A DNA stretch of 64,000 nucleotides, from positions 224,001 through 288,000 of the forward strand of contig CAWJTV010000027.1 of the NCBI GenBank assembly GCA_963845755.1. Reading direction: 5' to 3'. This document shows positions 6,601 through 7,836 of the stretch, in pieces; position 1 is the first letter of the stretch; each line of letters opens with the position of its first letter. The notes beneath the pieces are model-generated. The model worked only from the letters and a program-made list of their open reading frames with translations, searched no databases and had not been told where the DNA came from. The translations under genes and the position numbers were made by a program. This DNA comes from an uncultured Planctomycetota bacterium (GTDB lineage: Bacteria; Planctomycetota; Planctomycetia; Isosphaerales; Isosphaeraceae).

Positions 6601-6824
6601 TTGCCGCGACCGCCCGGCGGCCGACGGCCGCGGAGGTGAACATCTTGCTCGCCGGCTTCGAGGACCAGTTGGGCCGATTCCGTCGCGACCCCAAGGCGGC
6701 CGGCGCCCTGATCCGCGCCGGCGAGTCGTTGCCCGACCCGCGGCTCGACCCCTGCGAGCTGGCGGCGTACACCACGGTCGCGCAATTGATCCTCAACCTT
6801 GACGAGACGATCACCAAGGAGTAA
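3624..6824 (+). CDS. Planctomycete cytochrome c (PSCyt1) / DUF1549 / LamG / DUF1553 (PSD1) protein
   Basis: [47 protein letters not shown], LamG-like [16 protein letters not shown], C-terminal [11 protein letters not shown]; a signal peptide in another frame near 3661 suggests an N-terminal frameshift. Confidence 0.92.
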   Translation: [1066 protein letters not shown]

Positions 6825-6826
6825 CC
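6809..6826 (+). repeat. Left copy of 18-bp direct repeat GATCACCAAGGAGTAACC flanking the RAYT cassette
   Basis: Identical to 7819-7836; contains the PSD1 stop codon and AAGGAG. Confidence 0.95.
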
Positions 6827-6827
6827 C

Positions 6828-6946
6828 TTGCCATCGTAGGGTGCTCTGTGAGCACCAATTTGCCATCGTAGGGTGCTCTGTGAGCACCAATTTGCCATCG
6901 TAGGGTGCTCTGTGAGCACCAATTTGCCATCGTAGGGTGCACCAAT
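6828..6946 (+). repeat. Left tandem REP array, 32-bp period: GTAG-GGTGCTC-TGT-GAGCACC with linker AATTTGCCATC
   Basis: REPs at 6836-6856, 6868-6888 and 6900-6920; fourth copy 6932-6943 (GTAGGGTGCACC) lacks 9 internal nt. Confidence 0.97.
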
Positions 6947-6963
6947 TTTTGATTGTCATTCCT

Positions 6964-7533
6964 ATGTCAGATTATCGCCGCTATTTCGCTCCCGGTGGTT
7001 CGTTCTTTTTCACAGTCGTGACGCAAGGGCGCGCCGCGATACTGACCGTCCCCGATGCCAGAGCGATCCTTCACGAAGCTTTCGCGGAATGCCGGCGGCG
7101 CTGGTCGTTCCGGATGGACGCGAACGTTCTTCTCCCGGAGCACCTTCATGCAATCTGGTCTCTTCCCCGAGGAGACGACTGTTACCCGCTGCGATGGGCT
7201 TTCATCAAGAAGGAGTTCACCAAAAGATGGCTACAAACGGGTGGAAGCGAAAAACCAGTCGGTCCTGAGAGAAGGGGACGCCGACGGCGAGGTGTCTGGC
7301 AACCGCGCTATTGGGAACATCTCATTCGCGATGAGGATGATTTTGAACGACATATGGAATACATCCATTACAACCCTGTCAAACATGGACTTGTGGAATG
7401 CCCTCGAGATTGGCCATTCTCCTCTTTCCATAGGTGGGTCCGGCTCGGAGCCTATCATCCGGATTGGGGTTGTGGCTGTCGCGATGCACAGATATTCCGA
7501 TTCGACGACATTGAAAGAACCGCGATGGAATGA
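6964..7533 (+). CDS. rayT: REP-associated tyrosine transposase (RAYT/TnpA-REP, HUH Y1 family)
   Basis: MSDYRRYFAPGGSFFFTVVT N-terminus, HUH motif LPEHLHAIW, WQPRYWEHLIRDEDD, catalytic YIHYNPVKHG, DWPFSSFHR; flanked by GTAG REPs; visibly lower GC than flanks. Confidence 0.95.
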   Translation: MSDYRRYFAPGGSFFFTVVTQGRAAILTVPDARAILHEAFAECRRRWSFRMDANVLLPEHLHAIWSLPRGDDCYPLRWAFIKKEFTKRWLQTGGSEKPVGPERRGRRRRGVWQPRYWEHLIRDEDDFERHMEYIHYNPVKHGLVECPRDWPFSSFHRWVRLGAYHPDWGCGCRDAQIFRFDDIERTAME

Positions 7534-7539
7534 AGACGA

Positions 7540-7813
7540 CTACGAGAGGATCGGTGCTCACAGAGCACCCTACGAGAGGATCGGTGCTCACAGAGCACCC
7601 TACGAGAGGATCGGTGCTCACAGAGCACCCTACGAGAGGATCGGTGCTCACAGAGCACCCTACGAGAGGATCGGTGCTCACAGAGCACCCTACGAGAGGA
7701 TCGGTGCTCACAGAGCACCCTACGAGAGGATCGGTGCTCACAGAGCACCCTACGAGAGGATCGGTGCTCACAGAGCACCCTACGAGAGGATCGGTGCTCA
7801 CAGAGCACCCTAC
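7540..7813 (-). repeat. Right tandem REP array: 9 perfect 30-bp units, reverse orientation
   Basis: GGTGCTCACAGAGCACCCTAC (reverse complement of the left REP) starts at 7553, 7583 ... 7793, separated by identical GAGAGGATC linkers; extra CTAC at 7540-7543. Confidence 0.98.
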
Positions 7814-7818
7814 AAGAG

Positions 7819-7836
7819 GATCACCAAGGAGTAACC
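7819..7836 (+). repeat. Right copy of the 18-bp direct repeat; supplies the SD for the DUF1501 gene
   Basis: GATCACCAAGGAGTAACC followed by GCT and the GTG start at 7840. Confidence 0.95.

Follow-up and report, generated by a model that had tools for sequence, protein, structure and literature searches.

A single-copy RAYT gene between inward-facing REP arrays and target repeats at an interrupted gene junction of a planctomycete genome

A cassette built around a gene for a REP-associated tyrosine transposase (RAYT; REP, repetitive extragenic palindrome) interrupts an otherwise adjacent gene pair in an uncultured, metagenome-derived Planctomycetota bacterium of the family Isosphaeraceae. The window, that is, the whole stretch of DNA analysed here, spans 64,000 nucleotides (contig C27, positions 224001-288000) of a genome of 14,266,732 bases (14.27 Mb) in 49 contigs, called G000 below, and positions given without a contig name refer to it. 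Comparison with related genomes shows the cassette to be a true insertion at the junction of a PSD1-family and a DUF1501 gene, which arose after the split from a congener. The reading that we favour, and in which we place about as much trust as doubt, is that a REPtron inserted here after that split, that its REP arrays grew by local amplification, and that the duplication of target DNA on its two sides came from template switching associated with hairpins or from microhomology-guided joining.

The cassette and its borders

Both borders of the cassette carry the same piece of target DNA. The 18-mer GATCACCAAGGAGTAACC stands at 6809-6826 and again at 7819-7836, and these are its only two exact occurrences in the 14,266,732 bases, as the original prediction of 18-bp flanking copies had it. 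A direct-repeat search extends the match to 25 nt at 92% identity (6802..6826 and 7812..7836, both on the + strand), with the last 18 nt exact and two of the first seven different, and the duplication bracketing the cassette comprises 14-25 nt of target. The 25-mer has no secondary structure as DNA. Its left copy contains the final 21 coding bases of the PSD1-family gene, the stop codon TAA and then two bases, and carries the AAGGAG ribosome-binding motif as well, while the right copy sets AAGGAG 8 nt upstream of the DUF1501 start codon. The duplication preserves the stop codon of the upstream gene and restores the ribosome-binding site of the downstream one.

Inside these borders two arrays of one REP face each other across the RAYT gene. 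The REP is 21 nt long and consists of GTAG and a perfect 7-bp stem with a 3-nt loop. In the left array (6828..6940, + strand) Tandem Repeats Finder reports a period of 32 nt, 3.5 copies and 100% matches, the unit being TTGCCATC-GTAG-GGTGCTCTGTGAGCACC-AAT; three full REPs start at 6836, 6868 and 6900. From the fourth, innermost unit (6924..6946, + strand) 9 nt of the hairpin (TCTGTGAGC) are deleted and, at -0.3 kcal/mol, what is left forms no stable hairpin. The RAYT gene (6964..7533, + strand) is intact and encodes 189 amino acids from an ATG at 6964, a GTG upstream at 6937 being open too. The right array (7540..7822, - strand) has a period of 30 nt, 9.4 copies and 99% matches, with the + strand unit CTAC-GAGAGGATC-hairpin; its nine REPs lie on the minus strand, from 7553 every 30 nt to 7793, and are followed by a tenth spacer. 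Orientation is uniform inside each array (all three left REPs plus-strand, all nine right ones minus-strand), and the alternation of bacterial interspersed mosaic elements (BIMEs) is absent. The arrays are mutually inverted, and their 26-nt arms are 96% complementary. As single-stranded DNA the REP units fold at -7.0 (left) and -7.2 kcal/mol (right), values reached by 1 and 0 of 200 shuffles, respectively. The cassette has a guanine-plus-cytosine (GC) content of 0.49-0.60, against 0.65-0.72 in its flanks.

Insertion at a normally adjacent gene pair

A 3.7-kb query over the locus finds the orthologous pair of genes at 88-92% identity in the congener (G001) and at 74-86% in members of three other genera (G015, G012 and G008). 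In the latter three the PSD1-family and DUF1501 genes stand 5-8 nt apart without a cassette, and the left and right query matches overlap by 24-25 nt. Each holds a single copy of the target, ...GACGAGAC(G/C)ATCACCA(A/G)GGAGTGAC..., with the start codon of DUF1501 following after 5-8 nt. The junction of the congener is in a different state: it lacks a RAYT and carries instead 132 nt of unrelated AT-rich DNA, an insert that contains an inverted repeat of its own. The predicted interruption of a normally adjacent pair therefore held up when the empty site was looked for in relatives, with the qualification just given for G001. All four relatives have TGA at the position where the two repeat copies of G000 have TAA, and because the copies share this change one must derive from the other, after the substitution.

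The right border of the rearrangement may, on the same alignments, extend to 7845. Behind the right target copy, and preceded by a G, stands the octamer CTGTGAGC (7838..7845, + strand), which equals a stretch of the REP that runs from the last stem base through the loop into the 3' arm and holds the present GTG start of DUF1501. G001 and G012 read ATGGAC in its place, which is the reason for considering the wider border, and the DNA match of G001 begins only at 7845.

A RAYT of the window type is found neither by protein (the best matches are distant Y1 paralogues, E ~1e-5) nor by DNA in either of G001 and G012 (0 of 2 genomes), assemblies that are 87% and 60% complete by markers. The family model NF047646 reaches at best 88.8 and 87.2 bits there, whereas the two strong RAYTs of G000 score ~180; the gene could still sit in an assembly gap. 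A RAYT typically keeps the same extragenic position in related genomes, a matter of behaviour rather than of structure; the window RAYT is not at a shared position. Its history is one of two: a move within the lineage, or loss from G001 and G012 followed by re-seeding in G000.

The second strong RAYT of G000 lies on another contig (C41:452856-453374; locus L030), scores 179.5 bits and is 47% identical to the window RAYT. Its site is common to G015 (contig C281) and is without a RAYT in G001, G012 and G008, where the gaps measure 3062, 401 and 203 nt. As far as these alignments go, this second gene follows the conventional pattern of vertical descent plus loss, and the window RAYT is the exception.

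It is very improbable that the window RAYT, too, is ancestral at its site and that the relatives lost it cleanly by recombination between the repeat copies. Such a history would have in its favour that precise deletions can be promoted by direct repeats, that RAYTs are commonly lost (G001, G012 and G008 lack the second one) and that REPs persist in G001 and G012 without a RAYT. Nonetheless, at least three or four independent precise losses would be needed, G001 holds its different 132-nt insert and no clean single copy, and where the second RAYT is missing the gaps of 203, 401 and 3062 nt contain no clean junction. That the 18-mer is exact, the arrays are perfect and the derived TAA is shared speaks for a recent event instead.

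A REPtron of known kind

The open reading frame at 6964-7533 matches the NCBIfam model NF047646 (REP-associated tyrosine transposase) with 179.7 bits, against a cut-off of 80, and matches TnpA-REP of E. coli (PDB 4ER8) at E 2.2e-40 over residues 1-87 and 109-173. Its HLH (HUH-type) motif and the conserved, tyrosine-bearing stretch YIHYNPVKHG align with the E. coli protein. A Pfam search gave no match at E <= 0.001; the HUH Y1 family, whose members are single-strand nucleases and ligases, is the only protein family matched. A classical DDE transposon, with a target duplication of one short length, does not fit either this match or the spread of duplication lengths at RAYT cassettes, from 18-25 to 212 nt. 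By tblastn the gene is single-copy in G000, with one hit at 100% and the next best, on contig C41, at 47% identity. Its closest homologues anywhere are at most 62% identical and include sequences from Pirellulales, Phycisphaerae and Methylobacter.

The REP of the cassette is dispersed throughout the genome. G000 holds 87 exact copies, 163 with at most two mismatches and 205 with at most three, in 118 clusters on 30 of the 49 contigs. Seventy inverted REP doublets (REPINs) occur among them, mostly with starts 44-45 nt apart and GTAG outside, and the cassette has the same polarity with the RAYT gene in the middle. At up to two mismatches the REP is also found 231 times in G001, 34 times in G012, once in G015 and not at all in G008 and G006; reversed-pattern controls give 0-1 hits. 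The 231 and 34 copies in G001 and G012 make the REP family older than the insertion.

The locus is a classical REPtron, or REPIN-RAYT system, because it shows the structural features of one: a protein of the RAYT clade, inverted GTAG-tagged REPs, dispersed REP doublets and a single gene copy. The prediction had been right about a RAYT gene between inverted arrays of a 21-nt REP, with 3+1 copies on the left and nine on the right, as Tandem Repeats Finder, the REP positions and NF047646 agree. Its further suggestion of an undescribed system has to be dropped, since an ordinary REPtron with genome-wide inverted doublets of the same REP, a single-copy gene and a REP that predates the insertion is what the locus holds.

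The distribution of the REP is patchy, with 34 copies in G012 and one in G015, although G015 is nearer to G000 by DNA identity at the locus; this implies either loss in G015 or transfer of the system. G001 has more REPs than G000 (231 against 163 at up to two mismatches), yet no cognate RAYT was found in its assembly.

Several REPINs deserve a mention of their own. The window contains two more doublets, at ~23494-23555 and 41312-41377 (C27:247494 and C27:265312), which are diverged, with 2-3 mismatches per REP. Nine REPINs of G000 are identical for at least 30 nt past both REPs (C1:196830, C11:657474, C11:1289324, C29:446607 and C41:571323 and, reversed, C9:128229, C20:240682, C29:76012 and C34:404960). 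This nine-member form is either a longer REPIN, with the outer inverted arms GTCTGTCC...GGACAGAC, or one that sits inside a larger repeat and spread together with it. At L281 (G001:C23, ~118000-118400) a terminal-inverted-repeat element of ~190 nt with the ends TCTAAGTTCGACTTTTGCCG / CGGCAAAAGTCGAACTAAGA adjoins a long-form REPIN; ACTAAGAG is repeated at its outer border, and the site is empty in G000. At L271 (G001:C18, ~127700) a paralogous PSD1-DUF1501 junction has a REPIN at the gene end, where the GTAG of the REPIN supplies the TAG stop; G000 has 11 nt there (C5:623207-623218).

Tandem arrays as local amplification

The arrays are probably the product of secondary local amplification and not special transposon ends; what is notable about them is their size, not their kind. 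This reading rests on RAYT-less arrays, on smaller arrays at other RAYTs, on the agreement of the array unit with the usual REP flanks and on printed precedents. Same-orientation REP arrays without a RAYT occur in G000 at C1:60085 (4 x 30 nt), C11:541191 (3 x 41 nt) and C39:347022 (2 x 61 nt), and in each of them the unit is a REP plus its adjacent linker. Five of 99 other RAYT loci (L023, L055, L057, L074 and L091) have, beside the gene itself, a GTAG or CTAC hairpin unit of 25-36 nt in 2.6-4.1 head-to-tail copies, and a nine-copy array was seen at none of the 99. The unit of the right array, GGATC-hairpin-CTAC-GAGA, matches the usual flanks of the REP in G000 at every base.

As for the precedents, the accessible text of Di Nocera et al. 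2013 (PMC3733652) reports REP singletons reiterated in tandem with flanking DNA and head-tail REP clusters, and that of PMC3333891 describes tandem assembly through strand transfer by TnpA-REP. The idea of amplified single-REP ends as a special kind of element end thus loses its ground, as the same amplification is found at RAYT-less REPs, beside other RAYTs and in PMC3733652. The array at C1:60085 was considered as an emptied cassette and ruled out, being an old REPIN site common to G001 with other copy numbers.

Long duplications at other RAYT loci

Of 107 RAYT genes scanned, 19 lie between direct repeats of 25 nt or more with an identity of 90% or higher; of 126 mock positions at the same loci, 2 do. 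Host DNA makes up five of the 19; the rest were taken as REP or REPIN copies, a sorting done by eye on the first 50-60 nt of the repeats, with full reads only for L018, L052, L089, L161 and L181. More generally, the longest direct repeats in the flanks of homologues are mostly REPs or REPINs in direct orientation.

At four loci besides the window locus, host-DNA repeats stand immediately outside the inverted REPs. At L018 they cover 212 nt of intergenic DNA at 97% identity. At L052 they are 40 nt long (100%) and consist of the last 37 nt plus the stop of a gene of the starch-synthase family, and 8 nt then follow before a GalT-family gene; in three relatives, which lack the RAYT, only 80-100 nt separate these two adjacent genes and the gene end is present once. 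L089 has 128 nt (98%), made up of the end of a LemA-family gene and a REP, and L181 has 161 nt (95%), made up of the end of an EPSP-synthase-family gene and the first half of the cassette's own REP. At a further locus, L161, the repeats (180 nt, 92%) lie 66 and 140 nt from the REPs, and this is an uncertain case. Probably selection filters the outcomes: with the window locus counted in and L161 left out, the duplicate holds the upstream stop codon in four of five cases. Scoring the flanks of homologues, as had been proposed, has thus borne out part of the expectation, with arrays at five of 99 loci and host duplications at four other loci, and failed to produce another nine-copy array.

Neither a target duplication nor such a footprint around RAYT genes was found described in the accessible literature searched, in which PMC2817692 offers background only. 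Lengths of 18-25, 40, 128, 161 and 212 nt exclude a cut with a fixed stagger. A tentative and somewhat doubtful proposal would be that REPtrons occasionally move as a unit by an undescribed HUH Y1 route that copies a long, variable stretch of target (14 to >200 nt) to both sides. If true, unit movement would let REPtrons enter abutting or co-translated genes and destroy neither. The footprint is present at five independent Planctomycetota RAYT loci.

How the duplication may have arisen

In the reading that we favour, the terminal REPs with a short linker would have been amplified locally, by slippage or by cut-and-rejoin of the RAYT between neighbouring REPs. The duplication would arise during or soon after insertion, when replication or repair leaves the target and re-enters it at a REP-like sequence, through template switching or by way of microhomology-guided joining at hairpins. 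Such a route would differ from canonical Y1 peel-and-paste, which leaves no duplication, and the same process could account for the host duplications of 40-212 nt at other RAYT cassettes.

Hairpin-associated copying is favoured because of the homeology to the linker, the breakpoints inside hairpins and the REP sequence in two of the tracts. ACGAGAC, the 7 nt that precede the exact 18-mer, agrees with the array linker (ACGAGAG) at six of seven positions, with a binomial chance of ~0.001, and the join is placed within or just after GATC since the last partial unit has the array's G and not the target's C. Breakpoints fall inside hairpins in the 9-nt deletion of the fourth left unit, in the CTGTGAGC REP fragment after the right copy and in the L181 tract, which ends in a REP loop. 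Finally, the tracts of L181 and L089 contain REP sequence, so that the copied stretch was not purely unoccupied target.

A number of results weigh against this account, or against the duplications on which it draws. The homeology at the left junction is weak, and none is seen at the start of the repeat in three of the four other loci (L089, L181 and L018); L052 alone has CTACCAC at the repeat start, matching the end of its REP. The flanks of L089 stand on separate contigs in its nearest relative, suggestive of a rearrangement rather than a plain insertion, and the orthologous region of L018 was found in no relative searched. In G000 no donor copy or former site of the RAYT appears by DNA or protein beyond the distant paralogues; as the gene is single-copy, a copying mechanism with a resident template would require a donor that was later lost or was external. 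The REPINs point the same way. Of 74 REP sites of G001 compared with G000, about a dozen are common to both genomes, and all others except ten, with one or no flank matched, went unused; most intergenic DNA at the compared sites is too diverged to judge. The ten are insertion differences with both flanks matching close together; their junctions were read and show no long duplication, the best being a 4-nt overlap and an 8-9-nt repeat, and for this reason a long footprint is not general for what this RAYT mobilises. The flanks of the 70 doublets in G000 (60 nt each) contain only one direct repeat of at least 12 nt, which does not touch the element. Repeats of 9-15 nt occur in these flanks at six of 70 doublets, against two of 346 shuffled pairings; one of the six (11 nt, C41:486961) begins at the right end of the REPIN beside a further REP, and the other five touch neither end. 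Lastly, the public contigs stop short of the left junction and span neither array, so that the array copy numbers are assembly values. The claim that the integration route copies its target accordingly keeps its plausibility, given the recurrence at other RAYT loci, and is held back by the ten REPIN differences with junction repeats of at most 4-9 nt.

Could the transposase itself leave the footprint? The RAYT, covalently attached to the 5' end of each cassette strand, would join these ends to 3'-OH groups that it creates by nicking both target strands, at REP-like pseudo-sites whose distance varies, and gap filling would duplicate what lies between. We consider this rather unlikely. With its REPs inverted, the cassette has a GTAG-hairpin 5'-terminally on either strand, a polarity that fits the 5'-phosphotyrosine chemistry of HUH enzymes, and the accessible text of PMC3333891 has TnpA-REP cleave 5' or 3' of the REP at a loosely specified C|T, a low specificity that could yield lengths of 18-25, 40, 128, 161 and 212 nt. 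In addition, 10 of 12 positions agree between the minus strand at the target start, GATCGTCTCGTC, and the array linker GATCCTCTCGTA, and the plus strand immediately to the right of the insertion, CCGCTGTGAGC, is similar to the REP core GCTCTGTGAGC. On the other hand, the distance from junction to GTAG is unequal at the two ends of a cassette (9 against 0 nt here, 5 against 10 at L052 and 4 against ~25 at L018), which disfavours precise enzyme cuts at the junctions. The L181 tract includes half of the cassette's own REP, which is impossible in an unoccupied target; TnpA-REP, in what is accessible of its description, cuts no double-stranded DNA in vitro; and REPINs mobilised by the same enzyme lack such a footprint. 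A C|T junction rule as for E. coli TnpA-REP was also tried and rejected, as it is broken by L052, with A|T at its junction, and by L018, with G|C, and the window locus fits only with one base left unexplained.

A scar of recombination is quite unlikely as well. The cassette would have inserted without a duplication, and an unequal or Campbell-type crossover of a circle, a sister or an allelic cassette copy with the unoccupied site, possibly after transfer from a conspecific, would then have produced the repeats. About 25 bp is the minimum for RecA-dependent exchange in E. coli, and the repeats of 25, 40, 128, 161 and 212 nt all reach it. L089 looks like a rearrangement that joins regions apart in its nearest relative, the GC content of the cassette is below that of its surroundings, and its RAYT was not found in the congener. 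Against these points, two events would be required at each of five independent loci, with a duplication-free intermediate allele of which none was seen; a tract of 18-25 nt is marginal for homologous exchange; and the REPs of the cassette are identical to the resident REPIN population, so that the cassette is not foreign to the lineage.

To mis-assembly of repeats as the source of the arrays or the duplication we give hardly any credence. The assembly does have 49 contigs, a 1-base frameshift nearby is possibly a sequencing error, and the public contigs are short and of low depth, break in the arrays and miss the left junction. Nevertheless, public contigs match 6929-7199 (from the truncated unit to the RAYT) and 7805-7960 (from the array through the repeat to DUF1501) with 0 differences, although they perhaps stem from the same sample and are then not independent, and the same architecture recurs in unrelated assemblies. 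This support comes from four runs, as low-depth contigs of one study with 7-17% of the sampled words. The proposed check against reads thus agrees with the two stretches just named and leaves the arrays and the left junction uncovered. A public contig that leaves the window at 6826, with three differences, was set aside as the junction of another organism or of a paralogue.

Relation to described systems

In the accessible parts of PMC8266576 and bioRxiv 10.1101/2021.07.10.451892, RAYT genes show no evidence of mobility, REPIN-RAYT systems are strictly vertical and endosymbiont-like, and the way in which REPs spread is unexplained; PMC3333891, to the same extent, has the HUH Y1 transposase family make no target repeats. 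The original prediction had portrayed RAYTs as usually described as largely immobile, and HUH Y1 transposition as creating no target duplications; both views are indeed stated in print.

The E. coli REPtron (tnpA-REP/rayT, 4ER8), as portrayed in the available text of PMC3333891 and PMC8266576, is alike in its single-copy Y1 HUH gene and in its inverted GTAG-tagged hairpins, which are also found genome-wide. It occupies a single conserved position and, in the words of that text, 'does not appear to transpose as a unit', whereas the window cassette is missing from the site in four relatives and has a target duplication. The arrays differ too, as those of E. coli alternate REP and inverted REP (BIMEs) and the window cassette has a same-orientation monomer array on each side.

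From the parts available of Bertels and Rainey (bioRxiv 10.1101/2021.07.10.451892, PMC3116915), the REPIN-RAYT systems of Pseudomonas and Neisseria are alike in having ~66-nt inverted doublets, ~70 per genome, and one cognate RAYT flanked by the same REP. They differ from the present case, in which the RAYT was not found in a congener with more REPs (231 against 163). The group 3 REPtron Sm of Stenotrophomonas maltophilia (PMC8266576) resembles ours in the shape of the REP, GTAG plus a perfect palindrome with a 3-nt loop, with 8 bp there and 7 bp here; unlike the window cassette, it is not credited with tandem monomer arrays or a flanking duplication in the accessible text of that source.

IS200/IS605 elements (IS608, ISDra2) share a related Y1 HUH transposase, hairpin ends and single-strand chemistry. 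The accounts available describe them as multicopy, with one-orientation hairpins on the active strand, a fixed tetra- or pentanucleotide target and no duplication, whereas the window cassette has inverted ends and a long duplication; one copy and 18-25 duplicated nt set it apart from an element of several copies without target duplication. Head-tail REP dimers and tandem clusters are described for dispersed REPs, and not, as far as the accessible text of PMC3733652 goes, as inward-facing ends of a RAYT or with a gene-bracketing duplication.

Compared with what is accessible of this literature, the new part is the relocation of a RAYT with a long target duplication that recurs at other RAYT cassettes; the arrays are an extreme version of a known form. 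What the locus offers is a clean example of a RAYT gene in a new place: relatives have the site empty, and in the sister species, where hundreds of cognate REPs persist, the gene was not found. It bears directly on whether REPIN-RAYT systems can relocate or be re-seeded. Moreover, a long variable duplication is a searchable footprint that could reveal the insertion of RAYT cassettes. The practical interest is modest, and the system itself is of a known kind.

Neighbouring genes

The gene upstream of the cassette (3624..6824, + strand) encodes a PSCyt1/PSCyt2/Laminin_G_3/PSD1 protein, with Pfam matches to PSD1 (2.7e-99), PSCyt2 (2.7e-84), Laminin_G_3 (3.8e-24) and PSCyt1 (2.3e-15). Downstream, the DUF1501 gene (7840..9302, + strand) is read in two frames, and Pfam finds DUF1501 on both pieces, at profile positions 1-224 and 245-390 of 390. 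The split falls at 8771-8790, where one base of a GCGCGC run is missing after 8779 in a pairwise alignment with G001; either the gene truly carries a frameshift here, directly behind the insertion, or the gap is a sequencing error. Behind DUF1501, on the minus strand (9363-9972), lies an overlapping type II toxin-antitoxin pair with a YoeB-like toxin (Pfam 4.3e-28) and a Phd/YefM antitoxin (5e-17).

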